NCBI GenBank assembly: GCA_965116875.1
Contig: OZ220733.1
Coordinates: 1,056,001 to 1,120,000 of the forward strand
Source of the DNA: Candidatus Latescibacterota bacterium
Lineage (GTDB): Bacteria; Latescibacterota; UBA2968; GCA-2709665
Length of the DNA stretch: 64,000 bases
Reading direction: 5' to 3'
Notes under the pieces: generated by a model
The model's input: the letters and a program-made list of their open reading frames with translations, nothing else
Database searches by the model: none
Told to the model about the DNA's origin: nothing
Shown: in pieces, positions 5,613-35,300 of the stretch
How positions within the stretch are numbered: position 1 is the first letter of the stretch
Layout of the letters: each line of letters opens with the position of its first letter
Translations under genes and position numbers: made by a program

Positions 5613-5733
5613 TCTGTAATCCCAGCGGCGATCGCGCTCCGTTCTCATGGTCGATTTCACGATTCCTCGTATCGCCACAATGCGATCAACGATGGAACCG
5701 GAAAAACGACCAACAGAGTCGAATCCATTTCGG

Positions 5734-9694: not shown

Positions 9695-9870
9695 AGGATA
9701 CCCCTTTCTTTTGCAGAAAGGAAACAGTCGCGATTTCTCTGAGTCCGCGTTCACCTGGCAAGCGCGCGAACGACAGCTTTCGGTTCGTGGTCGATAACGG
9801 TCAGGAGGACACGGGCTGCCCGATCCGGAACGCGACGACCCCTTGCAGATCCGCTTTCCGGTCTGATTCA

Positions 9871-11142
9871 TCAGCCTTCGTCCTTCGCCTCTCCCGTCGC
9901 TTCCCGGTATTCGGCGATCCGCTTTTCGGCTTCTTCTTCGGTATAGGATCCGATAACTGCGCCGCTGTGTTCCGGAAGCTCGTAGGATGCCGTCTTGCCG
10001 ACGTGGGGCGTCAACTTTTCCCGCAGGTCGTTTGCCGTCTCGTGGTACATCCCGTCCAGAATGGAATCCATCTCCTCCATCGTCAATCCGCCGCCGAAGA
10101 TCGCCCCGCTCACGTCGGTCTCTTCGCCGATGGACTGCGTCATGCGCTCCTCGAATGAATCCGGGTAATCCACGTGGCTTCTTACACCCTGGAACTGCGC
10201 ATCGGCGAGGTCCGCACCCTGGAGATGCGCGCCCACGATGAAGGCACCCTGCAGATGCGTTCGGCCCAGCGTTGCGCCGCGCAGCATCGAGCGGGCAAGG
10301 TCGGCGCCCTGCAGGTTCGCCCGGGACAGGCTCGCGGCGTCGAGTCGCGCCCCCACCAGGTCCGCGCCCTGAAGCCTCGCCCACGAGAGTCCGGCCACCT
10401 GAAGGTGCGCCCACGACAGGTCCGCGCCCTGCAGTTGCGCCCCGACCAGGTCCGCACCCTGAAGCCTCGACTCCGCAAGATTGGCGCCGCACAGGTACCC
10501 GGCACAGAGCGTCGCTCCGTTCAACCAGCTTCCCTGAAGGTCGATGCGAAGCCCCTGGCAGATACCGCGAGGGGAGGTGAAGAGCAGGTTAAGCAGGCTC
10601 TGTACCTCCTCCGACGGATTCGACCTGTACCTTCTCCGATAGGTGTCCTGTTCCGTGGCGCGGCGGATATGCGAGCAGAGAATGTCCAGCACTGGCTGTC
10701 GTAACGATTCGGTTTCCTGCGCGAGGTGGAAGAGTTCGTAGGCGCCGCCCAGGCGGACCGCAACGGACTCGTGCCCCAGGTGTTCGACGCCGTAGTGCAG
10801 GCGTTGATGCCTCAGTCCGTGTTCGGCGTCACGGCTCGCGCGTGCCTGCTCCGCCGTGGCCCGGGCCTGCTCGACAGCCGCGTCGGCCTGTGCTTTCGCA
10901 ACCGCGTCCATCGCTCTGGAGCGTTTGTAGGCCATCAGGGCGTTCAGAGCAACCAGGACGCCGGCAGCGCCGATCCCCAGGAACTTGAGCGTATCGGCTT
11001 TCTGGTGCATGCCCAGAACCGAAGACATGGAATACGCGGCCCCGGGTACGAACAGGAAGCACACGAATGCCCCCAGTGCAAGCACAAACAGGGCGATCAG
11101 CACGGTCTGCAGAACCAGGAAAAGATTCATCGAGTCCTCCAT
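9871..11142 (-). CDS. Membrane-anchored pentapeptide-repeat protein
   Basis: Two N-terminal TM helices; motif EHLG-ES--VRLGGAYELFHLA...LDILCSHIR; tandem A(D/N)L-x-x pentapeptides (GADLVGAQLQGADLSWAHLQ...). Confidence 0.9.
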   Translation of the reverse strand: MEDSMNLFLVLQTVLIALFVLALGAFVCFLFVPGAAYSMSSVLGMHQKADTLKFLGIGAAGVLVALNALMAYKRSRAMDAVAKAQADAAVEQARATAEQARASRDAEHGLRHQRLHYGVEHLGHESVAVRLGGAYELFHLAQETESLRQPVLDILCSHIRRATEQDTYRRRYRSNPSEEVQSLLNLLFTSPRGICQGLRIDLQGSWLNGATLCAGYLCGANLAESRLQGADLVGAQLQGADLSWAHLQVAGLSWARLQGADLVGARLDAASLSRANLQGADLARSMLRGATLGRTHLQGAFIVGAHLQGADLADAQFQGVRSHVDYPDSFEERMTQSIGEETDVSGAIFGGGLTMEEMDSILDGMYHETANDLREKLTPHVGKTASYELPEHSGAVIGSYTEEEAEKRIAEYREATGEAKDEG

Positions 11143-11293
11143 GTATAGTGGCGGTTTTCAGCATTGGGATCAGCTGTTGTCGCGCGCCCCTGGATATGTC
11201 GGGCGCAGCCGCGCATGGCGACTGTATCGGGCAATTGGAAATATCCAGCCTGATGCCGCCATTGGCAAACAAAATTCGCGGCACCGCCCTGCT

Positions 11294-13825
11294 TCACGCC
11301 ATCAGATCGTCCCGGCCCAGTTCGGTAGCCGGCGTTCGGCTGGCGCGCGCCGCGGGGTAGAGGCTTGCCAGCAATGCCGCGCCGAGTATGGCGGCCACCT
11401 GCCGGAGAACGGATCCCCAGGGCCAATAGACCTGTATGGTCCATCCGAAATACGCCCGGTTGATCTCGAAGACAAGTATCCCCGCAAGCAGCACGCCTCC
11501 CAGAAGCCCAAGCCCCGTTCCCAGCAGTCCGAAACCCATGCCCTGGCCCAGAAACAGACGGAAGACCTGGCCGCGCTTCGCACCGACCGCGCGATACAAC
11601 GCCAGTTCGGTCACCTGCTCCCGTACGAGAACAAGAAGCATCAGCATGACGCCGCAAACGGCAATCAGCAGACTCATCCCCTGCAGAATCCGCGTGACCA
11701 GAAACGTCTGATCGAAAATCCGGAACACCTCGTCCCTGAGCCGTCGATTGCTGCGAATCTGGAGCGGCGCATCCGAATACTGCGCTTTCAGATGTTCGAT
11801 CACCGTGTCCGCCTCCCAACCTGGCTGGAGGAAAAGCGCCGCCCCGTTGACCGGCCCGGGTCCGAAGGTGGCCTCCAGTGTCTTCAGGTCCATGACAACC
11901 GCGCCGCCGCTCGTATGGTAGTCGTAGTACACACCCGCCACGGTAAACCGGACCTCGCCGTCCGGGCCGGAAACCGCGATTTCGTCACCGGACCACGTAT
12001 CGGTCCCGCGGGCAAGCGTCTCTCCCACAAGAACCGCGGACTCCTCTCGCACCCGTCGAAACGCCTCATCCACGTTTCCGTCTAGCAGCGGAAAACGTAC
12101 CTCGCCTCCGGGAAGCGCCATGTCCACCCCGGCCAGTCCGATCTGACGATCGCCGGACCAGCCCGGGAAGCCGCGGAGCCGGTCCACCATCGCCACGCCC
12201 GGATGACGCGCCAGGTCCTCAACCAGTTCGTCATCCAGGGTACCCTCGTTTCCGCGCCCCCGCCAGGAAGCGGGCGAAATGTACACATCCGCGCGGACCG
12301 ACGCGTTGACCCAGACTTCCATTGTCCGCCGGAAACTTCCAACCATCAGCGTGATGCCCACCAGCATGCTGACCGCTATGGCCAGAGACGCCACCGCGAA
12401 CGACGTCGTCCGGATACGAACAGCCAATGACCTCAGGCTGTAACCCGGCCCGAATCCCCTGACGCGCACGCGGCCGCAAACCTGGCTGATCGCGAATGGC
12501 GCGCACAGCGGAAGACCGATGAGGAGCGCCACGCAAAGGACGAACCCGGCCGGTTTCCATTCCCTGCCCCACCCGAGGTACCAGACGCCAGCCGCCGCAA
12601 TGATGCCCACTCCGGCGAATAACAGCCGCAGTACCAGCGGACCCGTCCGCTCCTGAAGCGGAACTGCCGAAAGCAGGGCCCGGGTATCCCGCCGGCTCAT
12701 GTCCAGCGCTGGCGCCAGGGCGCCCGCCAGGGCGCCCCCCATCCCGATCGCCACACCCAGCCCATAAAGCCATCCCGGCAGCCTGAGGGATGAGATTTCC
12801 TCCAGCAGGTAGAGATTGGTGAGCGTCGCGCTAACGACCTCCAGGTTCACCTCGGCGGCCCAGTACCCCAACGGCAGGCCCAGCAGCACCCCCACCGCCC
12901 CCAGAAGCGCCACTTCCCCCAGTATCAGCGCAAGGACCTGAGCCCGCGTGGCGCCCAGCGAGCGCAGAAGTCCGAACTCCGTCCGCCGCCGTATCAACCC
13001 CGCCTGCGTGCTGCTGTATACCAGGAACAGTCCGACGAACAGGCTGATCAGGCTCATCGCCGAAAGATTCAGCCTGAATGCCGAAAGCAGACCCTCCGCC
13101 TGCTCCGACCGCTGGCCGGGCGTTGCCACGCGCACTCCGGGGCCGAGCCTTTCCTGCAATCGCCTTCGGACGCCTGCGGGGTCCGCGCCCCCGGCGACCC
13201 GCACGTCAATCTGATGAAGCTGGCCCTTCCGCCCCAGCAGCGCCTGCGCTTGCGCGATGTCCATAACCACCAGTTTCCGGCTGGCTACCGGGCTCAGCGC
13301 CTGGAAGTCCACCAGCGCCCCCACGCGCAGACGCACCTGCCGAACCCCGCTTTGCACTTCGAACGTGTCGCCCACGGACCAGCCGAGCCGCTCAGCCAGT
13401 GCCGGCGTTACCGCGCTCCAACCGTCTCCTGCGAGCGCGGCGGAGATATCGCCGGGGTCGCGCTGCCACGGGATCCGCATCGGCGTAAAGAAGTCGACCC
13501 CCAGCACCTCGAGAAAGAACCTCTCCCTGCCCGCCAGCGCCACGTCCATCCGGTACAACGGCCAGGCCGACGCCACACCCTCCACGGACAGCACTTTGGG
13601 GTACGACCGTTCCGAAAACGCCGGCGTTCTTCCCAGCACGCTCAGGTCCGCCTCCCCGCTTACCGCCCGTACGGTCCCCTCGAACGCGGCCAGCGCGTTG
13701 AAATTCACAATCTGAATGGAGAGTACCGAAGCAACGCCAAGCGCCACGCCGAAAACGGTCAGAAAATAGAGGCTGCCTCCCGCGCGAAGCTGGGCGCCGA
13801 GAGATTTCGCGAAATAGCGGGTCAC
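11294..13825 (-). CDS. ABC transporter permease, duplicated MacB/FtsX-like (AttF/G-like)
   Basis: 843 aa; two MacB-PCD/FtsX halves, RRTEFGLLRSLGATR and ELALYRAVGAKR motifs, INRAYFGWT. Confidence 0.9.
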   Translation of the reverse strand: MTRYFAKSLGAQLRAGGSLYFLTVFGVALGVASVLSIQIVNFNALAAFEGTVRAVSGEADLSVLGRTPAFSERSYPKVLSVEGVASAWPLYRMDVALAGRERFFLEVLGVDFFTPMRIPWQRDPGDISAALAGDGWSAVTPALAERLGWSVGDTFEVQSGVRQVRLRVGALVDFQALSPVASRKLVVMDIAQAQALLGRKGQLHQIDVRVAGGADPAGVRRRLQERLGPGVRVATPGQRSEQAEGLLSAFRLNLSAMSLISLFVGLFLVYSSTQAGLIRRRTEFGLLRSLGATRAQVLALILGEVALLGAVGVLLGLPLGYWAAEVNLEVVSATLTNLYLLEEISSLRLPGWLYGLGVAIGMGGALAGALAPALDMSRRDTRALLSAVPLQERTGPLVLRLLFAGVGIIAAAGVWYLGWGREWKPAGFVLCVALLIGLPLCAPFAISQVCGRVRVRGFGPGYSLRSLAVRIRTTSFAVASLAIAVSMLVGITLMVGSFRRTMEVWVNASVRADVYISPASWRGRGNEGTLDDELVEDLARHPGVAMVDRLRGFPGWSGDRQIGLAGVDMALPGGEVRFPLLDGNVDEAFRRVREESAVLVGETLARGTDTWSGDEIAVSGPDGEVRFTVAGVYYDYHTSGGAVVMDLKTLEATFGPGPVNGAALFLQPGWEADTVIEHLKAQYSDAPLQIRSNRRLRDEVFRIFDQTFLVTRILQGMSLLIAVCGVMLMLLVLVREQVTELALYRAVGAKRGQVFRLFLGQGMGFGLLGTGLGLLGGVLLAGILVFEINRAYFGWTIQVYWPWGSVLRQVAAILGAALLASLYPAARASRTPATELGRDDLMA

Positions 13826-16821: not shown

Positions 16822-16886
16822 GGCATCGCTCCGGTTGGCAGAAACCCTTCAAGGATACAGGCCTGGCCGCCCATCAGCAGCGCTTG

Positions 16887-17049
16887 GTGTCCTGTCCCAA
16901 AAATTCCTCACCATTCGACCGACGATTCATCCCGTCTCGCTACGTTCCCCTCGCTCGCCGACCATACGCAGGGCGCCTGCGCTCGGGCGCCTTGCGAGCC
17001 GGGCGACTCGGCTGTCGAATTCAGGCAACTTATTTTCGGGACAGAACAC
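16887..17049. mobile_element. MITE-like palindromic element, family A (163 bp)
   Basis: Terminal inverted repeats gtgtcctgtcccaaaaat / attttcgggacagaacac (16 of 18 match), plus long internal inverted arms attcgac...tcgc / gcga...gtcgaat; partial copies at 15743, 23705 and 50615. Confidence 0.75.
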
Positions 17050-22069: not shown

Positions 22070-22906
22070 CTACGACCAGACGTAGACCTCGCCGTCGTCG
22101 TTCGACCAGCCGATGAAGACGGCCAGGACGATTCTGGGGTCGGTTCCTTCGACCGCGGGGACCTCGTGGATGCAGCGCGTGTTGAAGAAGTAGAGATCGC
22201 CCGGTTCGAGTTCGACGCGGCAGCGTTCGACGTTGTTCAGCCGGGCGTACTCGTGAAAGGCATCCGCGGCGATATGGGATTCGACGTCTTCCGTCCACAG
22301 GCACCGGTGCAGGATGGCCTGGGTTGCCGGACCGGCCTGGGCGGCGTTCTGGAAGCAGACGACGCCGGCGAACTGGTGCTCGAACCGGGAGACCTCGTAA
22401 TCGAAGCGCTTTTCGCGCAGCGTGACGTGATCGATATGCGGCCGGTAGGTGTGGTGGGTGTAGTGGATGCGGAAAATGGCCGAACCGTAGAGCCGGCCGT
22501 CGGGTTCGCGGGCCGTCATCACCCGTTTGCCGGCGGCCAGGGCGCTGAGGCTGTCATAGATGACGTCGACCGGGTTGTCGAAGCCATCGAAGAGGTGTCC
22601 GAACAGGTCGTGGGTACGGACGGCGTCTTCGAAAAACCCCCGCTGGTCGTCACCCCTGTTTCCAAGGCTGGTGCCGACGTCGATTCGAGTGCGGGCGTCG
22701 TCGGAGTCGGTCTCAGCCGGGTCCCGCATCAGGCCGCGGTGAATGAAGCGACGGATCAGGCCCCTGCAATGGTCGGGATTGTAGGACCGCCGCAGAAGGA
22801 TGGCCGGTATCTCCGCCGTAGAAAGGGCGTGGAGCGGATTTGCGTACCTCGCGTTCACGGTTTCCAGGTCCGGACCGACCGGCAGCCAGGAATCGGCGGC
22901 GGGCAT
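22070..22906 (-). CDS. 2OG-Fe(II) oxygenase-like protein
   Basis: Start MPAADSW at 22906 after RBS ggagg (the track start lies in the MITE); PHID...LEPGDLYFFN--CIHEV...R facial-triad pattern. Confidence 0.7.
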   Translation of the reverse strand: MPAADSWLPVGPDLETVNARYANPLHALSTAEIPAILLRRSYNPDHCRGLIRRFIHRGLMRDPAETDSDDARTRIDVGTSLGNRGDDQRGFFEDAVRTHDLFGHLFDGFDNPVDVIYDSLSALAAGKRVMTAREPDGRLYGSAIFRIHYTHHTYRPHIDHVTLREKRFDYEVSRFEHQFAGVVCFQNAAQAGPATQAILHRCLWTEDVESHIAADAFHEYARLNNVERCRVELEPGDLYFFNTRCIHEVPAVEGTDPRIVLAVFIGWSNDDGEVYVWS

Positions 22907-22920
22907 ATCGGTTTCCTCCC

Positions 22921-23084
22921 AGAAGCTGTGTTGAAATTCACGGTGCGTTCCCGAGCGCGAGCGAAAAGGTGGCGGTCGAGGCGGGAAAATCCGCCCATAT
23001 TTGTCTATACGGGTGGATTTGACCAACGCGGACCGACGCATTTGCAGCCGCGCGAAGACCGCCGGGAATTTTAATACAGCTTCT
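22921..23084. mobile_element. MITE-like element, family B (164 bp), copy 1
   Basis: TIRs agaagctgtgttgaaatt / aattttaatacagcttct; near-identical full copy at 50869-51032. Confidence 0.85.
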
Positions 23085-23584: not shown

Positions 23585-23704
23585 TTTTAACCAGGTAAGT
23601 TGCCGGAGTGATGGAAACGCGCGGGCAAGGAAGAATCCGGACCGGGGCCTGCAAAGACAATATGCTCTTCAATGACGACATCCGCAACCGTTTCTTTGGC
23701 TCCG

Positions 23705-23740
23705 GTGTCCTGTCCCGGTAATTCCTCACGATTCGACCGC
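23705..23740. repeat. Left-end fragment of MITE family A at the RiPP cluster boundary
   Basis: gtgtcctgtcccggtaattcctcacgattcgacc matches 16887-16920. Confidence 0.7.
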
Positions 23741-23744
23741 GGGT

Positions 23745-24836
23745 TCAGGGCATCGCCGCCGCTTCCGGACCGACCCGCAGCAATCTGAGGCCGGCATATG
23801 CTTTGGCCTGAACGCCGCCAACGCCGACCGCCAGTTTCACGTGATTGAGTCCCTTGTGAAGGACATACGCACCTTCGTTACCGAATACCCGTTCCAGCCC
23901 GGGGAAGGAGCGCAAGCCATTCCCCTTTGCCGGCAGACAGAGTTCACGCGCCTCCATACGTTCCAGAACCGGCAGCCACGTCCTGACGCCCGTACTGAGC
24001 CAATCCCCCACCGGCCAGCGGCCCTTCCTTTCGCTTCGCGGAAACATCTCAAGTCCCAGACGCGGCCGCAAACCGCGAGCCGAAGCGTCGAAACAGGGTC
24101 GGAAGTATGGAAATACGTCCCGCCATTCATCAAGGGTCTTCATCGCATTTCGCACCGAACCGGGCCAACCGGAGCGCTCCAGGAAAACGGGCATTTCCTC
24201 CGGCCTGACGCCGTTGACAATCACACGCACGGCCCTGAAGGAGCGGCCGGGCATCGCTCCCACGTGATCCAGCCGCCCCCCCGGCGGGAGAGCGTTGACG
24301 ACACGTTCCACGACACGGCGCTCAACGGCGTCATCGTTCCATCCCACCGCGTTCGTCAACTCTGCAACCGCGTCTCCAGGAGAACAGACCTCTGAACCCT
24401 CCGGCGAAGGAGCGGGACGCAACCCGAGAAACAGGCCGGGATCCGGCGATGCTTCCGACTCGACTCCGGCGACGTCGTATTCGAGCATGATATCGTTATA
24501 CCTGGCGCTCACGGCAAATCCGGCCGGCGTCCGGGTTTCCGCAATCTCCGAGAGGAATCTTCCCAGCGCGGCTGCCGCGGAATCCTGCTGGGCCGTCTTT
24601 CCACGATCGACGAAGTGCCCGGGCAATCCCGGATGGCCCGGAAGCACGCGCACAGAGAAGTCGGCCGCGGGCGCGGGGTCGCCCAGCGCAAATTCGAAGA
24701 ATACCCTGTACAGGACCGGCCACCCGGGAAGTTCGCCGACCCCGCGAACCAGACGGTCCCATTCGGGACCGTCTACAAGCTCCCGTGGAATGAAACGGCG
24801 CGATTCCGGTGAAATCAGCCTGAGGGACCCGGACAT
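23745..24836 (-). CDS. Uncharacterised protein downstream of the NHLP precursor; candidate RiPP tailoring enzyme (possibly ABBA prenyltransferase-like)
   Basis: RBS aaggag then ATG at 24836. Motifs FFEFAL...ADFS, MLEYDV...PDPGLF, GAMPGR--RAVR, GWPG, PRLGLE, LC-P-K--GL--FPG, GLNHVKL...AKAY resemble proteins I recall beside NHLP/Nif11 precursors; fold assignment is inference. Confidence 0.6.
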   Translation of the reverse strand: MSGSLRLISPESRRFIPRELVDGPEWDRLVRGVGELPGWPVLYRVFFEFALGDPAPAADFSVRVLPGHPGLPGHFVDRGKTAQQDSAAAALGRFLSEIAETRTPAGFAVSARYNDIMLEYDVAGVESEASPDPGLFLGLRPAPSPEGSEVCSPGDAVAELTNAVGWNDDAVERRVVERVVNALPPGGRLDHVGAMPGRSFRAVRVIVNGVRPEEMPVFLERSGWPGSVRNAMKTLDEWRDVFPYFRPCFDASARGLRPRLGLEMFPRSERKGRWPVGDWLSTGVRTWLPVLERMEARELCLPAKGNGLRSFPGLERVFGNEGAYVLHKGLNHVKLAVGVGGVQAKAYAGLRLLRVGPEAAAMP

Positions 24837-24954
24837 CGTCAACTCCTTCGTCGTACCGCTACATTCGAATCCTCATGCCATTGCAGGCGGGAGGACGCTG
24901 CCCGCGCCCGTTCGGACCGGAACGGACGCCGGCAGGGTTCGCGTCGGACGTACA

Positions 24955-24987
24955 GAAAAAACCGGCGTCGCCCGAAGGCGGCGCCGG
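24955..24987 (-). terminator. Intrinsic terminator downstream of the precursor gene
   Basis: Stem ccggcgtcgcc/ggcggcgccgg with loop cgaa (TTCG on the minus strand), followed by a U-tract on the minus strand (plus-strand aaaaaa at 24956-24961). Confidence 0.7.
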
Positions 24988-25059
24988 GAAGATGAATCGT
25001 AGCGCCTGGTGGAATTCCTGATCCCGCCGCCTGATTTCACGGCGAATCTCCGTGAACGA

Positions 25060-25374
25060 TCACGGACCCCCCAACGGCACGTGGTATTCGTCGTGATGAT
25101 CATGACCCCATTCACAGTTCTCCGCGCCCCCGCCGCCAACGACCGCCGCCAACTCGTCCTCGCTCATCGCCTCCGGTCCGGTTCTCAGCGGGAGAACCAG
25201 GTGCGCGGTAGACAGGTTGTCTTCGTGGACTTCAACCGCGAAATTTTCCGGAATCTTAACGCCGAGCTCTTTTTCTATCGAGCCCCTGGGATCTTTCAGC
25301 AGACCGGCGCGAAACTCCGCGTCAAACGACGCTTTGAATACGACGTGTTCCTGCATTTCCTTCATGGTCTTCAT
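25060..25374 (-). CDS. NHLP-leader (proteusin-type) RiPP precursor peptide, 104 aa
   Basis: RBS aggagg then MKTMKEMQEHVVFKASFDAEFRAGLLKDPRGSIEKELGVKIPENFAVEVHEDNLSTAHLVLP...MSEDELAAVVGG|GGAENCEWGHDHHDEYHVPLGGP; KA--D-EFR--LL-DP, V-VHE, LVLP and the ELxxVxGG cleavage motif. Confidence 0.93.
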   Translation of the reverse strand: MKTMKEMQEHVVFKASFDAEFRAGLLKDPRGSIEKELGVKIPENFAVEVHEDNLSTAHLVLPLRTGPEAMSEDELAAVVGGGGAENCEWGHDHHDEYHVPLGGP

Positions 25375-25510
25375 CGTAGCCCTCCTATCCTGACGTGGTG
25401 GAATAAAGTGAACTTTTCGTGATACTCGATATAAATATCGTCTTAATCGTGATTTAATGGATCTATATCGATAATAAAAATGACCTTTTCGTGATAATAG
25501 CCACAACGCA

Positions 25511-25538
25511 AATATAACGAAGTTCTGTTGAATGTCAA
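25511..25538 (-). promoter_or_regulatory. Sigma70-type promoter for the precursor gene
   Basis: Minus strand TTGACA-N16-TATATT, followed by a very AT-rich leader in a GC-rich genome. Confidence 0.7.
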
Positions 25539-25588
25539 CCCCGGCGCCGGGACTCCCGGGAGGGCGCGGGGGCAGGTCCCTTTGCGAC

Positions 25589-28531
25589 TCAGGCGCTCGC
25601 CGACTGAACCGTCTGACGCCGCGCGAGACCGGCAAAGACCCCATTGCGCTCGATCAACTGCCGGTAGCTGCCGCTTTCCACGATACGCCCGGCGTCCAGC
25701 ACGAAGATTCTGTCAACGTCGCGGATCGTACTCAGCCGATGGGCAATGACGACACGAGTCACCCCCAGACCCTTCAGGGACGATTGTACCACCGCCTGCG
25801 CCCGGTTGTCCAGGGCGCTGGTGGCCTCGTCGAAAAGCAGAATGCGCGGCTTCCGGGCGAATGCGCGTGCGATCAGCAACCGCTGCTTCTGTCCTGCCGA
25901 AAGACCCACGCCGCCTTCCGGAAGGATCGTATGCATTCCCATCGGCATCGCCCGTATATCTTCTTCGAGCGCAGCCGCCTTGGCGGCAGCCCACGCCTCT
26001 TCATCGCTCAACGGAGACATCCCGGCGATATTCTCGAATATATTCCCCGCGACGATCTGGCCGTTCTGAAGGACGACGCCCAACTGCCTGCGGAGGGCCG
26101 TCAGGTCCAGGCTGGACAGGTCGTGCCCGTCCAGAAACACCGTCCCTGACTCCGGACGTTCAAAACCGAGCAACAGGCGGTAGACGGTTGATTTTCCGCA
26201 GCCGGAGGGTCCCACGAACGCGACGTAGTCGCCCTGCCGGATTCGAAACGATACGCTGTCGATCGCCTTTGACGCTTCCGGACCGTATCGAAAGTTCACG
26301 CTTGAGAATTCCAGTTCGCCCTTTATGTCCGAAAGCTCGATGCGTCCGTACGCGGTCTCGGGCGTCGCATTGAAGATCGGTCGTACGCGTTCGAGAAGCG
26401 GGATCACGGCGATTGCGGTTGCCGCGGCGGAGGTGAGGGCAAACACTGCGGCGGTGAGCTGGCCGAACGCGGCATTGAAGGATAGAAAACCCGCCAGGTC
26501 GAACGTGGATCCTCTGGGATCCAGGATGGCGTGCTGCACCGACTCGAAGATGACGATAAGCGCCAGCGGATGGAACATGCCGACAACGACGTATTGCGCC
26601 GCGGTCCACTTCAGCGCGGAGAAGGCGGCCCGCTTCTGTTCGGCGAAACGCCGGGCCCAGCGCGCCAGCGCGAAGGTCTCGGAATTGGCGACCCGAAGCT
26701 TGGCAAGGCCGGTGATCAGTTGAAATACGAACCCGTTGATCGCTCCCTGAATGCGAAATACGTCCCGATAATGACGAAGCTGCCCCCGAGCCAGAAACCA
26801 TGCCGCACCCACCAGGACGAACAGCATCAGGCAGACGTACAGAGCGAGCGACCGGCTGTAGTAGAAGAGCAATGCGAGGTTGAATACGGAAAAGATGCCG
26901 CCCATGGCGGCGCCCACGGCCGCGAAGGAGATGATGCGCCTGATCTCGCTGATTCCGTTCGCGCGGTTTTCAAGGTCCCCCACCGTGTAGTCGCGAAAAA
27001 ACGGTGCGCGAAGCGCAATCAGCCGGCTCCAGATGGCGGACTGGAGGCGCTCGTCGACGCGACCCTCGATCCTCAGCAGGGCGATTCCGCGCACAATCTC
27101 GAAGACTGCGTTCCCGAAAGCAGCCAGTATCAGCGCGATCAGTGCGACAGACCACAGCGAGATTTCTGCCCGGGGAATGATGCGGACGAGCAACTCACCG
27201 GTAAGTATCGGCGTCAGGAGTGACACCATCCCGCCCAGGATGCCCACCAATAACACCGTACGAAGATCCTCCCCGCGGCGATGCAATGAGAATCGAAGTA
27301 CGGACCCGCCCGACTCGATGCGGTTGGGCAGTGGCGCGTAGAAAGCCAGACCGCCCGGGGCGATGCCCGCCGCGTTGCTTTCGGTGACCACGAGAGATGT
27401 ACCCGTGACCGGATCGATCGCCCGGTACGCGCCGCGGTTGTCGGAAAGAAGCGCGAGCGGCCGGTCCGCGCCGTCTTCTCCCGCGGTGAAACCCACCAGG
27501 GAAGGGCCGTCACGCCGCCACCATCCCGGCTCCAGCGAAATCCATCGCGTCCGGATCCCCGACCTGCGGGCAATCCCCTCCACAGCCTCCACGGACGTCT
27601 GTGCTTCCCCGGACTTCGAGGGAATCTCCAGCGAGGCCCCGCAGGAAGAAGCCACGATGGCTGCCGCCGCCTGAAGAGGCGTTCCGTCGCTGCCGGCGGC
27701 GATCGCGCTGTCGCCGGGCCCCGCCAGAATCCTCTCAAATCCGCCGAGCGCCCGCGTAACCGATGTTCTCCTGACTTCGTGGGCGTTGCGGCGGCGGACC
27801 TGCAGGTTCTCGGCAGACTCAGACTCGGCAAGAATGGCGAATTCCAGGATTCGTGCGCTGAAACCCTCAAACGCTTCCCAGAACCGGTCCGTGAGAAGGG
27901 CCGTTGGCGTATAGAATGCGGACACCGTCGCGTCGGCGTCGATCTGCATCCATGTTCGCTCTGTAACCGGCACGAGCGGACCGCCCGCCGCCACGGCCAG
28001 GGCTTCACGGCCTGCAAGGCGCATCGGCGCATCGGCGCCGACCCAGATGACGTCCATGTGCTGGGCGCTGAGCATGCTGCCGGCCGCATAGGAAACGTCC
28101 GGCTCCGCCTCCAGCAACCGCGCACCCCGGGGCGGCGGCCGATCCCGAACCACGAATTCCGAGATCCGGGAAATCCATTCGTCGATCCAGCTGGTCGCGG
28201 CAAGATCGAAGTCGTCCGTAGCGACGCCGTCCCGCTCTCCCCGGACGATGACCGCGTCGAGAGACGGTACGGCGAGGAATCCGAATGTGCGATGAGGCTG
28301 ATCCGGATGCCTGACCGTGTCTGCGCCAAAGGCCATTTCTCCGGCCGGAACACGGGCGACGAAGTTCCGGCGGCCCGCGGCTTCGCTGTCTTCGAGTTCG
28401 ACCGCGAATACGTCCAGATATCCCCGTTCAACGAAGTAGACGACGGCCGTGTCGTCCATCGGGAACGGCCGGTGAGCGCCGGTTTCGATCCGGACGCCGC
28501 GTATGCGTTCGATGAGCGGCGTTTCAGGCAT
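25589..28531 (-). CDS. NHLP bacteriocin export ABC transporter permease/ATPase with N-terminal cNMP-binding-like extension
   Basis: N-terminal VYFVERGYLDVF...GEMAFG; L---WWRRDGP-L; TMD; GPSGCGKST, LSAGQKQR, FDEATSALDN. Confidence 0.9.
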   Translation of the reverse strand: MPETPLIERIRGVRIETGAHRPFPMDDTAVVYFVERGYLDVFAVELEDSEAAGRRNFVARVPAGEMAFGADTVRHPDQPHRTFGFLAVPSLDAVIVRGERDGVATDDFDLAATSWIDEWISRISEFVVRDRPPPRGARLLEAEPDVSYAAGSMLSAQHMDVIWVGADAPMRLAGREALAVAAGGPLVPVTERTWMQIDADATVSAFYTPTALLTDRFWEAFEGFSARILEFAILAESESAENLQVRRRNAHEVRRTSVTRALGGFERILAGPGDSAIAAGSDGTPLQAAAAIVASSCGASLEIPSKSGEAQTSVEAVEGIARRSGIRTRWISLEPGWWRRDGPSLVGFTAGEDGADRPLALLSDNRGAYRAIDPVTGTSLVVTESNAAGIAPGGLAFYAPLPNRIESGGSVLRFSLHRRGEDLRTVLLVGILGGMVSLLTPILTGELLVRIIPRAEISLWSVALIALILAAFGNAVFEIVRGIALLRIEGRVDERLQSAIWSRLIALRAPFFRDYTVGDLENRANGISEIRRIISFAAVGAAMGGIFSVFNLALLFYYSRSLALYVCLMLFVLVGAAWFLARGQLRHYRDVFRIQGAINGFVFQLITGLAKLRVANSETFALARWARRFAEQKRAAFSALKWTAAQYVVVGMFHPLALIVIFESVQHAILDPRGSTFDLAGFLSFNAAFGQLTAAVFALTSAAATAIAVIPLLERVRPIFNATPETAYGRIELSDIKGELEFSSVNFRYGPEASKAIDSVSFRIRQGDYVAFVGPSGCGKSTVYRLLLGFERPESGTVFLDGHDLSSLDLTALRRQLGVVLQNGQIVAGNIFENIAGMSPLSDEEAWAAAKAAALEEDIRAMPMGMHTILPEGGVGLSAGQKQRLLIARAFARKPRILLFDEATSALDNRAQAVVQSSLKGLGVTRVVIAHRLSTIRDVDRIFVLDAGRIVESGSYRQLIERNGVFAGLARRQTVQSASA

Positions 28532-28535
28532 GATG

Positions 28536-30755
28536 TCAGTCCGACATGACCAGGGTCCTGTAAAGGCCCTCTTCCGCGATCAGGCTGTCGTGGGTGCCGC
28601 GCTGGACGATGCGGCCCCGGTCGAGGACGACGATCTGGTCCGCGTCCCGGATGGTACTCAGCCTGTGGGCAATGATGAGGCATGAACATCCGCGGCGTCG
28701 AAGCCGGTCGTCGATCTCGACCTCGGTAATCGGATCCAGCGCCGCGGTGGCCTCGTCGAGCACCAGTACGGCGGGATTCCTCACAAGCGCACGCGCGATT
28801 TCCAGGCGCTGCCGCTGACCGCCGCTGAAATTGCGCCCTCCCTCGCTGACGGGGGAATCGTATTTCATGGGCCTTGCAGAGACGACGTCATGGATTGCGG
28901 CATCCCTGAGCGCCTGTACCACGTCACGTTCTTCAATATCGGGATCCCACAACGAGACGTTTTCCCGCACGCTGGCCTCGAACAGTACGACCTCCTGGTC
29001 CACGTAGGATACGATTTCGGCGAAACGGGAGGGAGGGATGTCCTCGAATTCCTGCCCGTCGATGCGCACGGTTCCGGACCAGGGCGTCAGCAGACCGCAA
29101 ACGATCCTCGCGACAGTCGACTTTCCGCTTCCCGACGCGCCTACCAGCGCCACGCGGCGGCCCGGCCCGATGGTAAGACTGAAATCCTCGATGAGGGGCG
29201 GATCCGTGGCACTGTAGCCGAACGTCACACCTTCGAGATCGACGAACCCTCGGGGCGGGGGTGCGTCCGGTACAGGCTCTGCCGTATGGATGCCCCTGAG
29301 CGTTCGCTCGTCGGGGGCGTAGTTCAGAACGTCGTCGAGCCGACCGATATCAGCCCTGATCATCTGCAGACTGGCGCCGAACCGAACCAGACCTTCAACA
29401 GGTCGAGAAAAACTCAGCGTGAGACTCTGAAAGGCGATCAGTCCGCCGATGGATAGCGCCCCGTCGAGGATACGAATTCCTCCGTATCCCAGGACGATGA
29501 TGGACGTGAGCGCCGAGAGGAGAACGGGCGCGACATTGGCGATGGTTGAAACGGTGTCGAGGCTCTGCTGGGCGCGAAGCGCATTGGCGTGGATTCCGGA
29601 CCATCGGGCGAAGAAATCGTCCTCTGTACCGTTGGCCTTGAACGTCTCGATGATCCGGATGCCGTTTATGGAGGCGCCGGCAACCCTGCCCCTTTCTTTG
29701 AGAAGCCTCCGGTTGGCGTTGTCGCGGGCGCGCGCCGCCAAATGCAGCACGATCAGATTTATGGCGACCATCGCCAACGCCATCAACGTGAGCGGAACGT
29801 CGTACGAAACCATGACCAGTGCATAGAACACCATCGTGAATACGTTTATCGCATTGACGGCCAATTCGCCGGAAAGCAACCGCGCGACGGTGTCATTCGA
29901 CGCCACGCGGCTGGCGATGTCACCGGCGTAGCGCTGGCTGAAGAACAACATCGGCAACGTTGCGACGTGCCAGAAAAAGCGCACGGTCGAAATAACGGAC
30001 AGCTTGGTCTCCATCCTTGCCAGGAGGATACGCTGCAGCCAGGTCAGCGCGCCCTGGACAACGGCCGCGAAGGCCAGTCCAATCAGCATCGGAGACACCC
30101 AGGCGCTGTTCTGCCCGATCAGTACGTCGTCGATGAATACCTTGATCAGGGTCGGGACGGCCACGCCGGGCACAACGAGAGCCAGGGTCGCCAGCGCCGC
30201 GAACGCAAACGGACTCCCCGCGTCGCCAAAGCGGGCGTGCAGTCGCCGAATCAGATTGGGCCGCGGTCCCCCCGGACTGAACCCGGACGAGGGCGCGAAA
30301 CCGAAGCAGACGCCCGCGAAGCCCTCGACGAACTCCTGCATCGTGATCCTTCGAGGGCCTTCGCCGGGATCGTTGATATAGACTCTGTCGCCCTTGATCC
30401 CTTCGAGAACGACAAAATGGTTGAACTCCCAGAAGACCACCATGGGAAACGGAACGTCGAACAATTGCTCGTGCTGACTGCGGAAACCCCGGGCGATGAG
30501 GCCGTATTCCCGGGCCGCTTTCAACATATTGGCGGCATTGGCGCCGTCCCTGGAGACGCCGCAGCGTACCCGCAGCGCTTCGAGGGGCACCCATCGTCCG
30601 TGATAGGCGAGAATGATGCCAAGACATGCGGCGGCGCACTCCGTGGTCTCCATCTGCAGGATCGTCGGCGTCCTGAAACGTCCGCCCCGATCGGACCGCA
30701 GGTTCGGACGCAGATCGGCGTGGCGGTCTAATGACTCAGTTTTTCTTTGATCCAT
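28536..30755 (-). CDS. NHLP-family export ABC transporter, C39 peptidase/permease/ATPase
   Basis: RTPTILQMETTECAAACL (catalytic Cys), CGVSRDG, FWEFNHFVVLEG (His), YINDP (Asp); GASGSGKST, FSGGQRQRLEIARAL, LDEAT. Confidence 0.95.
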   Translation of the reverse strand: MDQRKTESLDRHADLRPNLRSDRGGRFRTPTILQMETTECAAACLGIILAYHGRWVPLEALRVRCGVSRDGANAANMLKAAREYGLIARGFRSQHEQLFDVPFPMVVFWEFNHFVVLEGIKGDRVYINDPGEGPRRITMQEFVEGFAGVCFGFAPSSGFSPGGPRPNLIRRLHARFGDAGSPFAFAALATLALVVPGVAVPTLIKVFIDDVLIGQNSAWVSPMLIGLAFAAVVQGALTWLQRILLARMETKLSVISTVRFFWHVATLPMLFFSQRYAGDIASRVASNDTVARLLSGELAVNAINVFTMVFYALVMVSYDVPLTLMALAMVAINLIVLHLAARARDNANRRLLKERGRVAGASINGIRIIETFKANGTEDDFFARWSGIHANALRAQQSLDTVSTIANVAPVLLSALTSIIVLGYGGIRILDGALSIGGLIAFQSLTLSFSRPVEGLVRFGASLQMIRADIGRLDDVLNYAPDERTLRGIHTAEPVPDAPPPRGFVDLEGVTFGYSATDPPLIEDFSLTIGPGRRVALVGASGSGKSTVARIVCGLLTPWSGTVRIDGQEFEDIPPSRFAEIVSYVDQEVVLFEASVRENVSLWDPDIEERDVVQALRDAAIHDVVSARPMKYDSPVSEGGRNFSGGQRQRLEIARALVRNPAVLVLDEATAALDPITEVEIDDRLRRRGCSCLIIAHRLSTIRDADQIVVLDRGRIVQRGTHDSLIAEEGLYRTLVMSD

Positions 30756-31975
30756 GGCAGAACAAGCGCGGCCGGCGATTGGGTGGACGCCCGGATTTCG
30801 ACGGTTGCAAGCGTTCCGGGAGTGATTTCAAGATGAGTGGCTTGCGGCGACGTCCACGCGAAGCCGCTCCGTGTCGTCGCATCCGGCGTGAGCGCGATTC
30901 GCGCCGGATATGGCGGACCGGATGCGGAGAAGGTCCCGGCAAGCTCCTGGTTCCGGAGTACGGCGACCATGCCGTTCAGGCTCGCCGGAAACTCGGACAC
31001 GTACTCTACGGTTCCGATCATGGAGCCGTATTCCTCGCGTCGGACGGTGGCCGGCGTTACGAGAACGGACATGCCCTCCTTGACGCTCTTGCCATCCAGC
31101 GCGGAGACGTACGAGAGCACGTCCAGGCCTTCTCCGCCGGTCTCAATGCTCAATACGGACTCTCCAGGGCCGAGCGTCACGCCAATCTGCGCCTTGATCT
31201 CGATGATCCTCCCGGAGACCGGAGCGCGAATTCGCCAGGTCTCGATGGTCACCCTGAGTTCGCTGACGTCCATCTCGGCTTTCAGGAGTTCGCCTTTGGC
31301 GTGAGAGAGCCGGGAATTGATGCCGCTCCGTCGCCGGACGTCGTCCTCGTCGAGTGCGTCCCGCCGGCGCAGCACTTCGAACAGATTCTGCTGCAGGACG
31401 CTCAGCGCCTGTTCGCTTCGCTCCACGGCCGTCCGATCGATCATCCGCTGCGCGAACAGTTTCCGGTCTTCCTGAAGGCGCATGCCGGCTTTTTCTTTCA
31501 GCTCGCGGTTTATGCGTTCCATCTCGTCCAGCCGGTCCCGCTGCCTGGCGAGGTTCTCCGCCGCGAGCCTGTTCTCCTCATTGGTTTCGGTGATGCGATC
31601 CCTGAGTTCCTCCTTGTGCTCGGCCACGAGCGCGACGGCGCTCTTCAGCCGTTCACTCGTCTCCGCGTCGAAGATCTCAGCCACCACGTCGCCTTCCTGA
31701 ACCTGCTGTCCGACGGCGACCGCGATTCGCGTCAGTCTGCCGCCGCCCGGAGACGCCGCGTCGAATACCATGCCCTTGCGACTCAGAAAAATGCCCTCGG
31801 CTTCCACGTAGATGGAAATCTCGCCCCAGAACCCCCACGCCACGACAGCGCCGGTCAGCGCCAGGAGGACGCAGAGCCACAGCCATGTCATCGGCGTTGT
31901 CACGTTCAGCGCGCGGTCCAGGTGTTCGGGGGTCCGCAGGCGATCAAGCGCCTTGTTTCGATCGGATTCGTTCAT
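30728..31975 (-). CDS. NHLP bacteriocin system secretion protein (HlyD-family membrane fusion protein)
   Basis: ALDRLRTPEHLD---V, N-terminal TM, coiled coil, IRAPVSGRI, P-TVRREEYG, SGF-WTS. Confidence 0.93.
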   Translation of the reverse strand: MNESDRNKALDRLRTPEHLDRALNVTTPMTWLWLCVLLALTGAVVAWGFWGEISIYVEAEGIFLSRKGMVFDAASPGGGRLTRIAVAVGQQVQEGDVVAEIFDAETSERLKSAVALVAEHKEELRDRITETNEENRLAAENLARQRDRLDEMERINRELKEKAGMRLQEDRKLFAQRMIDRTAVERSEQALSVLQQNLFEVLRRRDALDEDDVRRRSGINSRLSHAKGELLKAEMDVSELRVTIETWRIRAPVSGRIIEIKAQIGVTLGPGESVLSIETGGEGLDVLSYVSALDGKSVKEGMSVLVTPATVRREEYGSMIGTVEYVSEFPASLNGMVAVLRNQELAGTFSASGPPYPARIALTPDATTRSGFAWTSPQATHLEITPGTLATVEIRASTQSPAALVLPWIKEKLSH

Positions 31976-32124
31976 GTCTGAGAAGGATGGTAAACCGGAA
32001 GAATGTGATTTTTTCGTGTACCCATTTGATGCCAGCGAATGTAACGCAAATCGTCAGCCGATGTCAATCAGATTTCGAGTCCGCGCCGTTCGATGGATCG
32101 ACCCGTGAAACCCGCGTAAATAAC

Positions 32125-32157
32125 AAAAAGACCACCCGCATATGGGGTGGTCTTTTT
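32125..32157. terminator. Bidirectional intrinsic terminator between the TBDR and the RiPP exporter
   Basis: aaaaagaccaccc-gcatatg-gggtggtcttttt; A-tract and T-tract flank a GC stem. Confidence 0.8.
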
Positions 32158-32380
32158 CAATCGGCAATCATCCGTCTGAAACGGCCGGCGTGGAGACGTC
32201 CGTTGTTCTCCACGACTATTTCAGGGATTTATTATGACATACAGGCGATAGCTGCGGTCCTTTTGGTGACTTATTCATGATACTCGGTAAAGGCCGGGAT
32301 GCACAATCCTGCATGAAACGCGGTCACGGCTCCGTGATGTTCCCCCGGAGATACCCGGCTGTCATCTCGATCGCTTTGGG

Positions 32381-35300
32381 CTATCGCCCGAGGTGATACG
32401 TAACGGCCAGCTTCAGCCGCCGGCCCTTGGGATCGTGCGTGAAGCCGTCGTAGGCCTGCTCGATATTCACGAGAGGGGGCCTGGCGTCCAGCAGATTCAT
32501 TCCGGACAGCGCGATATTCAACCCGTTCGGCAGGTTCCACAGGAACGTCACGTCCCATGTTACATACGATTCGATGGTACCGAAAATGCTCTTGATATTC
32601 GAATTATCGGAGGCCATCGACCCGCGGTCTTCATAGGACGAAATGTAGTTGAGGTAGGTCGCGAGACTGTAGTCCTGCCAGTAGTAGCTGCTGGAAATCC
32701 GTCCCTTGAACTTGGGAAGCGACGTTGCGATGGGATTGCCGAAATTCAGGTAGCCGGCGGCGTCCGCTTCCTCCTGCAGCACCAGGCCGCCCAGCATCAA
32801 CGCCTTTGTCTCGTACGCCAGCGTATACGTGCCTTCCAGGCCGGCCGTGAACAGGCCCGCTCCCTGCGGGACCCGCGTACCCAGATGGAGATCGATCCCC
32901 GAGGTCTTGAGCCCCGGCCAGTTGACGATATCCACCTGCACCCGCTCGAGTTCCGACGCCGCGCACGTGCCGGTACCAATCCCGTCCGGGCACACGATGA
33001 ACTGCTTCAGGGCATCTTTATTGGCTTCGTCCGCGTACAGGGCGGTAATGGCGCCGTGGGGCATGGAACCGATCACGTCGCTGAAATCGTAACTCCAGTA
33101 ATCCAGTGTCGCCTCGAAACCCGTTTCGGTGACCAGGGCGAGCCCCGCGTTAAAGGTGAACGCCCGTTCGGGTTTGAGGTCCTTGCTCCCGATTCTGTCC
33201 ACCGTTTGGTAGGCGCCCGTCTCGTTGATCCATTCGAGCGTGGAAAGCGGGCTTTCATTTACGTCGTCCAGCGACGGCGTGCGGAACGTCGTCTGCACCG
33301 AGCCGCGCAGGAATACGGATTGCTCCGACGATTCCATCAGCTGGTAGCGCCACCCGAATTTGGGATCGAAACTGCTCGCCACGTCGTGGAACTCGTAGTT
33401 GGCGGCGAGTTGCACGTCGAACGACTCGCCCAGGCTGAGGGGCGTTTCCGCAAAGAAGCGATGCACCGTCTGGGATTCATCGTAAGGCCGATGCACATTG
33501 GTGAACGCATAGGGTCCGAATCGGTCCTCCGCCGAGCAGTTCCTGTCGCCCACAACCGGACAGGGGTTGATGGTGACGTCGCCCTCGTCGTTGGGGTCCC
33601 CGCTGGCATTGAACAGCCGGAACTGGTAGCCCGCCGCGTAACTGGCGACGTCCTCGACCCAGGTCCCCGTCAGCGTCGCGTCCGCGACCAGCATGTCGGC
33701 TGTACTCTGCATGTCCACTTCCTGGTTGAGCCAGAGTCGAAGCTCCTCACTGTTGGCAAGCGCGGCGCGGTAGTTCGGATTCGCCCGGGTTTCGTACCCC
33801 GAACCGTACTGGTCCGTGAACTCGATGGCGTTGCCGAAGGGATTGTAATACTTGCAGTTGCCCTGTCCCGCCACCTGACCGCTCAGCGGTCCGAGGCGCA
33901 TCCCTGCCAGCGAGGCGCGGTCCGCCACCACGTCGACGCCGCAGCGCGGCCCCCCGTAGCCCCGGAAGCCGAGGAAGAGCCGCTCGATATACACGCCCGG
34001 CAGGTTGTAGTTGCCCTCGGTGCGGGAATAAGAGAGACCGAGGTCGAAGTGGTTCTCCCGATCGCCGAACGCTACGAAGTCCCCACTCGCGGAGGCCGCC
34101 ATTCGCCAGGTGGCGGCGTCTCGGCCCAGCGTGCGGCCCGGTCCCGAGTTTCCGAAGGGACGACCGTTGAAATACCAGTTTTCGCCGGCCTGGCACGCCT
34201 CGTAGTATTCGTCGGTTGGCTCGGATCCGTAGTCATCGCAGAACGCGCGACGGCCCGGGTGGTCGGGCGCGACCTCCATGATGCTCGTGTCCGTGAGGGG
34301 AAACGGCGGATACGAAGGCGTCGTATACCACTCCGGAATATCCGCCCGCGCCCACAGGGCCTCAACGTGATACTCCGTGCCGTTATCCAGCTTCCCGTTG
34401 ATCTCGGCAAAAGCGCGGGTGTGACTCATTTCTTCAATCAGATTCTCATATTGCTGATACCGGAACCGGCATGTCCAGGACTCACGGAATCCGCCGAATT
34501 CCTCGCACCTCGGGGCGTGAATGGCGGCGGTCCACGGGGCGGGCGCACCGATGGCGAAGGTGCCGGGATTTCCCAGGCTCGACCATCCCAGGCGCTGCCC
34601 CCCGCCGTGCCATGGCTGCAGCAGGTAGTCCCTTTCCCAGGACGGCAACGCCTGGCGTCCCCTCCATTCGGCGGAGACAACCGCATGGGCCTCTCCGAGT
34701 TTCCCGCCCCATATCGCACCGGCGTTGGTATCGCCGGCGCCGGGAAAGTACTCGTGCGCGGCGGAAACCTCGAAGCCCTCGAAATTCCTTCGCGTGAGGA
34801 AGTTGGCCACGCCGCCCACGGCGTCCGACCCGTATATGGCGGAAGCCCCTTCCTTGAGCACTTCAACCCGCTCGATGGCAATCGAGGGAATCACGTTGAC
34901 ATCGACGAAGCGTCCACCGATCAGCCGCGCCGGGACGTAGGTCTGGCGGCGGCTGTTAATCAGCACGAGGGTGCGCGACGCCCCCAGGCCCCGCAGGTTG
35001 ACGTTCGCGATGCTTTCCGAAAGTGTGGCGGCCTGGCCTGAATTGTACCAGCTGCTGCGTTCCCCGATCACGCCGTGGCTCGCGCCGAGATTCTTGAAGA
35101 AATCGACGGCCTGCGGAGACCCCTGCTCCGCCATCTCTTCGCGCCCGACAGCCACAACCGCGTACGTCTGGTTGATGGGGGGTTCCTTGAACGCAGTGCC
35201 GGTCACCACAAGCTCGTCCATGTAGAGCAGGGACAGATCCATGCTCAACGCAACGCGAAGCGTCGCACCCGCGGTGACCGTGATCGTGCGGGGTTCGCTC

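Follow-up and report, generated by a model that had tools for sequence, protein, structure and literature searches.

A predicted PT-barrel prenyltransferase paired with a tryptophan-containing NHLP precursor in an accessory island of a Latescibacterota genome

A stretch of 64,000 nucleotides from the genome of a Candidatus Latescibacterota bacterium (contig OZ220733.1, positions 1,056,001 to 1,120,000; hereafter the window) contains a block of five genes, at positions 23745–31975 on the minus strand, which probably constitutes a self-contained, minimal system for a peptide that is ribosomally synthesised and modified post-translationally (a RiPP). In this system a single enzyme with the PT-barrel fold would prenylate the tryptophan of one precursor peptide, which would be cleaved after a Gly-Gly pair and exported. 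Its product is likely to be a peptide rich in histidine whose only tryptophan bears a lipid-like prenyl group. The five genes lie head to tail and are all intact, encoding an HlyD-type adaptor, an ATP-binding cassette (ABC) exporter with a C39 peptidase domain, a second ABC protein, a precursor peptide of the NHLP family and a 363-aa protein, just as an earlier reading of this DNA, hereafter the sequence-only reading, had described them. The precursor and the three export genes score above the curated NCBIfam cut-offs of the TIGR03793–03797 profiles against which that reading had proposed to compare them.

The 363-aa protein (23745–24836, minus strand) is a predicted peptide Trp prenyltransferase of the ABBA (PT-barrel) fold, an assignment made from its predicted structure. 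The gene is present in single copy in the genome and begins with an ATG behind GGAG, an alternative upstream TTG giving 365 aa. Neither Pfam, even at E≤10, nor NCBIfam has a family that the protein matches; the families Trp_DMAT (PF11991), PTase_Orf2 (PF11468) and DUF5838 (PF19156) are among those without a match. All five named members found in ten looked-up clusters of its sequence family are called ‘hypothetical protein’ by their sources, and the family was therefore rightly taken to be unnamed; it is also large, with 905 cluster representatives at E≤1e-3 (50% clustering) and 83 at E≤1e-30. Leads from the ESM Atlas pointed to the Trp_DMAT and PTase_Orf2 clusters. From the single sequence, AlphaFold2 returned an unusable model (predicted local distance difference test score, pLDDT, 34.6), but with an alignment of 100 sequences, 23–46% identical to the query apart from one close relative at 82%, it gave a pLDDT of 92.7 and a predicted TM-score of 0.92, with repeated helix-helix-strand-strand units.

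Comparisons of this model with known structures lead first to prenyltransferases. The Foldseek matches listed from the PDB are all ABBA aromatic prenyltransferases (AmbP1, AnaPT, TleC, CymD, DMATS1, NphB/Orf2, FunA, EpzP, CloQ, IptA and MpnD), with probability 1.00 and E from 1.8e-5 to 1e-3. VIA-align, run independently of Foldseek against 48,161 chains, placed prenyltransferases at each of ranks 1 to 19 (Z 16.1–11.0, 261–309 residues aligned), with rank 20 at Z 6.0. MpnD comes first (Z 16.1, 299 residues), followed by DMATS1 (15.6), AuraA (15.5), CymD (15.3), FgaPT2 (15.1) and FunA (14.8), rows within 1 Z unit being tied, while NphB (12.8), PagF (12.0), PatF (11.8) and DciF (11.0) stand lower. 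The ABBA fold is settled as far as prediction can settle it, and the model resembles DMATS-type enzymes more than cyanobactin-type ones. Nearly invariant charged and aromatic residues are spaced i/i+2 on the predicted strands (E119/D121, R259/G261/E263, H332/K334 and K345/Y347), together with R198, R204 and E48; across the alignment, R198 and Y347 are invariant, and R204, K304, H332, K334, K345, E48, E119 and D121 are at least 90% conserved on predicted strands. This is the pattern that a putative diphosphate-binding barrel lumen would show. The enzyme is under purifying selection, with a ratio of non-synonymous to synonymous substitution rates (dN/dS) of 0.25–0.30 relative to three relatives, and evolves faster than its neighbours (79–83% identity, compared with 86–96%).

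Members of this family are linked to NHLP precursors well beyond the window. When neighbourhoods were compared, as the sequence-only reading had suggested, a family member was found beside an NHLP precursor in 14 of 15 distant loci; outside the window's phylum, this survey comprised one plasmid and 11 metagenome contigs. In a locus from the same class (L019), where the enzyme is 32% identical, the precursor has the core WSPSSPSLGP and is accompanied by two ABC genes and an oxidase linked to flavin adenine dinucleotide (FAD). In another from the same phylum (L020; enzyme 22% identical), five tandem precursors, all ending in Trp, are found directly upstream of the enzyme, and downstream of it are a YcaO protein and a ThcOx-type oxidase. 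On plasmid pAB510a of Azospirillum sp. B510 (NC_013855.1; L022), a family member (profile E 3.3e-46) is encoded with eight NHLP precursors at most 10 kb away, seven of which end in Trp, and YcaO and LanM too. One or two precursors adjoin the enzyme gene in all 11 metagenome loci, which came from a scan of metagenome contigs with a six-sequence alignment; the cores are short (FGAFWG, YGAFWG, NGLISSWARA, DWRNMGGPGAE, DWRTGGEGGP and ...NAGWP), and in seven of the 11 ABC genes occur inside the fetched stretch. Trp is present in all 22 distinct cores next to family members, while Cys occurs in eight, Tyr in six and His in three; if Trp were drawn at the 1.5% frequency seen in the window's proteins and seven locus groups were represented by a single core apiece, Trp would turn up in every one with a probability of about 1e-5. 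Adjacency of enzyme and precursor spans at least three phylum-level lineages, that is, the window's phylum, Pseudomonadota and metagenome contigs.

Two of the distant loci have additional genes beside these elements. Directly after the prenyltransferase homologue of L019 comes the FAD-linked oxidase (11118–12530, plus strand; PF01565, PF09265), whose C-terminal domain is like that of cytokinin dehydrogenases. Since isopentenyl side chains are what such dehydrogenases act on, this oxidase may process a prenyl group. Adjoining the five-precursor array of L020 (14788–19746, minus strand) are genes that by eye resemble a response regulator/PP2C protein, CheB and a CheA kinase, and these signalling-like genes recall the histidine kinase PalP beside PalX and PalQ.

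The five genes are gained or lost as a whole. In three genomes of the same genus that lack the cluster, homology to the window ends at 23586–23589 and returns at 32385–32388, with 260–436 bp of unrelated DNA between the two aligned flanks; the five genes and their intergenic regions, and nothing else, therefore form one insertion/deletion unit of 8.8 kb (23590–32384), an accessory island that is more than a chance grouping. The distance from the TonB receptor gene to a WelO5-like oxygenase gene is 717–934 bp in five of five cluster-less genomes of the genus, compared to 9340 bp here. The family of the fifth gene occurs in nine of 168 genomes of the phylum and in six of 15 genomes of the genus, the window's own included. 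Across the 22 genomes of the taxonomic family, the enzyme, an NHLP precursor over the cut-off and a TIGR03796 exporter over the cut-off are found in an identical set of six (G000, which is the window's own, G046, G047, G048, G051 and G053), although this is a pattern and not a statistic because kin genomes are not independent. The G+C content of the island (0.61–0.63) is the same as that of its surroundings. The 363-aa protein is the only non-export enzyme inside the indel, and this, with its joint presence and absence and its linkage to precursors elsewhere, makes it very probable that the lone hypothetical protein is the maturase, as the sequence-only reading had proposed.

The precursor gene (25060–25374, minus strand; 104 aa) matches TIGR03793 with 60.9 bits (cut-off 50.9, model positions 1–77). 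Its leader ends in ...DELAAVVGG and its core is GGAENCEWGHDHHDEYHVPLGGP, a sequence of 23 residues rich in His, Asp and Glu, with four His, one Tyr and one Cys, and with a single Trp at core residue 8 (...NCEW...). Both the double-glycine leader end (VVGG) and the adjacent C39-ABC/ABC/HlyD exporter, over its cut-offs, are features of NHLP membership, and no other NHLP in the 5.45-Mb genome is over the cut-off. Two other genomic matches were rejected, being below the cut-off and located in a true nitrile hydratase alpha gene with the beta-subunit gene alongside; nitrile hydratase thereby explains sub-threshold NHLP matches in all 22 genomes of the taxonomic family. That locus (G000:C1:3566141-3569311) encodes an alpha subunit of 204 aa with the metal-binding Cys-Ser-Cys signature and a beta subunit of 228 aa.

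Across the six genomes, the last 22 residues of the core are identical. Among its 23 codon columns, 11 show synonymous changes only and one is non-synonymous (Gly/Ala directly after the cut site), whereas the 81 columns of the leader divide into 21 synonymous-only and 22 non-synonymous; the cargo is therefore more constrained than the leader, and the core is under strong purifying selection. As the core has no Ser or Thr, lanthionine formation in it is impossible. Its acidic character and four His suggest metal binding, and, by analogy, ComX and PalX suggest a signalling role for the product. A contig of 308 nt from a sponge metatranscriptomic library covers the precursor gene nearly end to end (25074–25381, five differences) and other contigs of the same library fall on parts of the ABC genes; as libraries of this kind can include DNA, these contigs hint at transcription without proving it, and that none of them covers the body of the enzyme gene is no evidence of silence. 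The bacterium is found in sponge metagenomes, and contigs from two runs of this kind also map to the stretch, mostly at 90–99% identity.

Other maturases were sought in the window and in the genome. There was no match to YcaO, LanM or radical S-adenosylmethionine (SAM) enzymes in the 42 open reading frames (ORFs) scanned in the window, which upholds what had been claimed from the letters, nor does the five-gene island contain the radical-SAM maturase by which a proteusin is strictly defined. A distal maturase acting in trans had been named as a possibility by the sequence-only reading. YcaO had no match in the genome, which is 97.7% complete, with a control that was positive in five of 14 reference genomes; rSAM_ocin_1 reached 23.9 bits at best against a cut-off of 281.85, other radical-SAM subfamilies not being searched genome-wide. 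Searches with LANC_like and DUF4135 were likewise empty in the genome and show little since their controls were silent everywhere, so that for LanM the absence of Ser and Thr from the core is the stronger argument.

In the pathway that we propose, the 104-aa precursor would be expressed from its own promoter and bound by the barrel enzyme, which may dock via the structured NHLP leader by analogy with the lanthipeptide prenyltransferase MppC. A prenyl cation derived from dimethylallyl, geranyl or farnesyl diphosphate would be transferred to the indole of core Trp-8; the C39 domain would then cut after VVGG, and the ABC pair and HlyD would export the prenylated 23-mer. A complex prediction for enzyme and precursor gave 0.06 against a mark of 0.32 and speaks neither for nor against binding.

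Several observations weigh against this pathway. Prenyl transfer by the family is something that we infer from a model, and the prenyltransferase assignment depends on predicted structure because there is no sequence-level family match: at E≤0.1, Pfam's prenyltransferase families were hit by none of 100 relatives, and a family profile searched against PDB sequences found no prenyltransferase, its matches being at chance level only (E 0.069 and 1.8). Foldseek TM-scores are only 0.41–0.52. PatF, which has the same fold, is not known to be active as a prenyltransferase, and the fold is therefore no proof of activity. The evidence from linkage is also smaller than its counts, since several of the 11 metagenome loci duplicate one another and amount to approximately six independent cases, while in the five close relatives synteny is complete, so that they contribute nothing independent on linkage. 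One distant locus (L021) is without a precursor; there, the gene is near the end of a 10-kb contig, with about 0.9 kb beyond it. Lastly, the core encoded in the island is unlike the short or hydrophobic cores of other loci, and its four His, one Tyr and one Cys, invariant in six genomes, are of kinds that accept prenyl groups elsewhere.

Among the alternatives, we think it unlikely that prenylation is one of several modifications, such that unlinked enzymes (the WelO5-like oxygenase, dependent on 2-oxoglutarate (2OG) and Fe, or some other oxidase) would modify the His/Asp-rich core too. This idea draws on the WelO5-family enzyme two genes downstream, which has an H-x-D motif (PF22814, 72.9 bits), on the FAD-linked oxidase that follows the prenyltransferase homologue in L019, and on the habit of the family of serving as an add-on enzyme, as seen from its co-occurrence with YcaO, ThcOx and LanM in L020 and L022. 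However, the WelO5-like, dCMP deaminase and TonB genes are present and adjacent in five of five genomes of the genus without the island; tblastn detected no homologue of these three flanking genes in the 14 distant loci searched (L022 being left out); and YcaO has no match in the genome.

Less probable, in our judgement, is a peptide prenyltransferase directed at another part of the core, whether a His (at carbon or nitrogen), the oxygen of Tyr, the sulfur of Cys or the new N-terminus. Cyanobactin ABBA enzymes are known to prenylate His, Tyr, Ser/Thr, Arg and termini (PMC12715784), LimF is reported to prenylate His-C2 and Tyr-O (PMC11002830), and the structural matches of our model include the histidine prenyltransferase FunA at Z 14.8. 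On the other side, Trp is the sole candidate acceptor common to all 22 cores, and the best structural matches are indole prenyltransferases (MpnD, DMATS1, CymD and FgaPT2, with ties as above).

It would be surprising if the PT-barrel protein did not act on the precursor, either as an inactive leader-binding, scaffold or immunity protein of the PatF kind, or as a small-molecule prenyltransferase that happens to travel with the cluster. Its lack of sequence-level membership in any characterised prenyltransferase family and its position as the least conserved gene of the block could be read in this way; against it stand the charged barrel-strand residues conserved across 100 sequences, the low dN/dS of the enzyme, its adjacency to precursors in at least three phylum-level lineages and the lack of any other enzyme in the island to explain the strong conservation of the core. 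That the island is a decaying, non-functional remnant, as its patchy distribution within the genus might imply, is scarcely credible given five ORFs intact in six genomes, a core under strong purifying selection and metatranscriptomic contigs on the precursor and parts of the ABC genes, which alone are not proof of transcription.

The HlyD-type periplasmic adaptor (30728–31975, minus strand; 415 aa) matches TIGR03794 with 245.8 bits (cut-off 156.2) as well as HlyD_3. The C39 peptidase/permease/ATPase exporter (28536–30755, minus strand; 739 aa) matches TIGR03796 with 995.2 bits (cut-off 853.3) and has a Pfam Peptidase_C39 domain of 110 bits at residues 29–156; it is expected to cleave the precursor leader after Gly-Gly. 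The second ABC permease/ATPase (25589–28531, minus strand; 980 aa) matches TIGR03797 with 811.7 bits (cut-off 709.4) over residues 283–973. Residues 1–282, an N-terminal extension outside that model, are not matched by any Pfam family at E≤1. This extension of 282 aa is conserved in prenyltransferase-linked clusters, given that alignments with the homologues in L019 and L026 begin at residues 1 and 12, and it could be a candidate substrate-recognition domain.

A promoter-like sequence (TTGACA-16-TATATT, 11/12 matches; 25511–25538, minus strand) is situated in the AT-rich spacer before the precursor gene, 137 nt upstream of the precursor start, and a second (TTGACA-18-TACATT, 10/12 matches; 32038–32067, minus strand) lies upstream of the HlyD gene. 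Four such sites were found in the region against 2.0 ± 1.4 expected, and it is their position, not their number, that is the argument. The upstream edge of the island has the bidirectional terminator-like hairpin previously placed at 32125 (32125–32157; 13-bp stem flanked by A5 and T5 runs). At the downstream edge, the ‘MITE fragment’ reported at 23705 proved in part correct, in that a short repeated element of 36–37 nt (23704–23740) occurs three more times in the genome at about 89% identity, including once at window positions 16886–16921, while nothing longer was found. A terminator or attenuator between precursor and enzyme was rejected: a GC hairpin and U-run are seen there by eye, but 24940–25062 does not fold better than its shuffles (z -1.03) and is absent from the scan list.

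Around the island, the genes for the WelO5-like oxygenase, a 461-aa protein, dCMP deaminase and the TonB receptor were rejected as members of the cluster and are regarded as core-genome flanks because they are conserved in genomes without the island. The WelO5-family 2OG/Fe(II) oxygenase (22070–23041, minus strand) contains its H-x-D motif in ...PHIDHV..., which makes the iron site one of hydroxylase type and not of halogenase type; its true start is probably downstream of the listed ATG, since relatives align only from residue 29–42. Further away in the window are two WD40-repeat proteins with eukaryote-like repeats (7316–8476 and 8540–10492, minus strand; WD40 240.7 and 218.5 bits) and a CrtC-like protein of two lipocalin domains (4503–5678, minus strand; PF07143, PF17186) beside two ABC exporter genes (625–4211, minus strand). 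A second C39-type ABC gene is located approximately 15 kb before the window (G000:C1:1038535-1040652; frame of about 1020 aa) and scores 580.9 bits with TIGR03796, below the cut-off; every genome of the genus has a TIGR03796 match of that score class, and we therefore consider it to be a different, conserved exporter.

These results assign a fold and a testable reaction to a large family (905 representatives), in which the members found with a source name are all called ‘hypothetical protein’, and they supply a simple rule, namely an NHLP precursor with a core Trp adjoining this enzyme family. The island is the cleanest experimental case, with a single precursor, a single enzyme, no maturase in competition and a core in which lanthionine cannot form, and it offers a tractable entry to the family and to linear prenyl-Trp peptides in several phyla. 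If our reading is true, leader-dependent prenylation would not be confined to cyclised cyanobacterial lanthipeptides but would reach linear peptides of several phyla as well, and such lipidation enzymes, with the leader as an address tag, would interest peptide engineers. From its invariant, His-rich core, a role in metal binding or signalling may be supposed for the product, neither of which is described for prenylated peptides within the literature searched. A bolder proposal can be put forward only tentatively: that the island represents a widespread, unnamed class of minimal RiPPs, comprising short linear NHLP-led peptides whose sole class-defining change would be the prenylation of Trp, carried out by a dedicated PT-barrel family that is guided by the leader and separate from the cyanobactin F and DMATS enzymes, and that the invariant His/Asp/Glu-rich 23-mer here is a lipid-anchored metal-binding peptide or a ComX-like signal and not an antibiotic.

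Among known systems, the DMATS-type enzymes (MpnD, DMATS1, CymD, FgaPT2 and TleC) resemble the 363-aa protein most in structure (Z 16.1–14.0, 281–309 residues aligned) and prenylate indoles; they differ in accepting free Trp or small indole compounds as substrates, while the structural alignments show 6–14% sequence identity and PF11991 has no match. The cyanobactin F family (PagF, PatF and DciF, as well as KgpF and LimF) shares the barrel fold and the use of ribosomal peptide substrates, but its structures match less well than those of the DMATS type. Cyanobactin ABBA enzymes prenylate peptides independently of the leader, after PatA/PatG-type proteolysis and macrocyclisation (PMC12715784). 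No PatA/PatG-type protease was found among the 42 window ORFs scanned, and the precursor is an NHLP with a C39 exporter, not a cyanobactin. NHLP/TOMM and NHLP/lanthipeptide clusters share the precursor family and the TIGR03794/03796/03797 export genes, but their usual maturases are YcaO, LanM and radical SAM enzymes, none of which is in the island or window; distant relatives of the enzyme do occupy clusters of these types, in L020 (YcaO, ThcOx) and L022 (YcaO, LanM).

The PalQ/PalX and ComQ/ComX pairs are alike in their prenyl-Trp peptide product, and the PalX cluster is minimal like the island. PalQ of Paenibacillus alvei is reported to prenylate the C-terminal Trp of the NHLP-type PalX in a three-gene cluster, with the leader enhancing the reaction, and PalQ and ComQ are all-helical and related to trans-isoprenyl diphosphate synthases (PMC10853753). 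Since the window's enzyme is modelled as a beta-barrel, this likeness is one of analogy and not homology, and no isoprenoid synthase is among the structural matches listed. Our literature search, whose coverage left out most subscription journals and supplements, found no linear NHLP peptide for which an ABBA prenyltransferase is the sole enzyme; NHLP, Nif11, lanthipeptide and MppC are terms that do not appear in a 2026 review of peptide prenyltransferases (PMC13290415).

Other precedents concern lanthipeptides. The work of Hubrich et al. (Chem 2024) is cited for lanthipeptide prenylation after macrocyclisation (PMC12715784), and, compared by title and citation only, their terpene-RiPP hybrids differ from the island, which has neither a terpene cyclase nor LanM. 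MppC from Moorena producens PAL (Wakeel, McShan and Agarwal, JACS 2025) belongs to the ABBA enzymes; it requires the entire Nif11 leader, and it attaches a geranyl group to C5 of Trp in a lanthipeptide (PMC12715784). Given that ABBA prenyltransferases acting on long-leader RiPPs have thus been published, and that the fold of the present enzyme is recognisable, the claim of the sequence-only reading that the product would be a RiPP class defined by an unnamed enzyme family was overstated. The MppC/MppE/MppM system resembles the island in having a soluble ABBA prenyltransferase beside a precursor with a long, structured leader of the Nif11/NHLP clan and a core Trp, and, as predicted for the island, in modifying one specific Trp indole with the help of the leader. 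It differs in that the MppE leader is of the Nif11 type and the core is first cyclised by the LanM enzyme MppM, whereas the island combines an NHLP leader with a core devoid of Ser and Thr, and the genome has no LanM match in searches whose controls were silent. Compared by description, the island would work like MppC minus the LanM-cyclised substrate.

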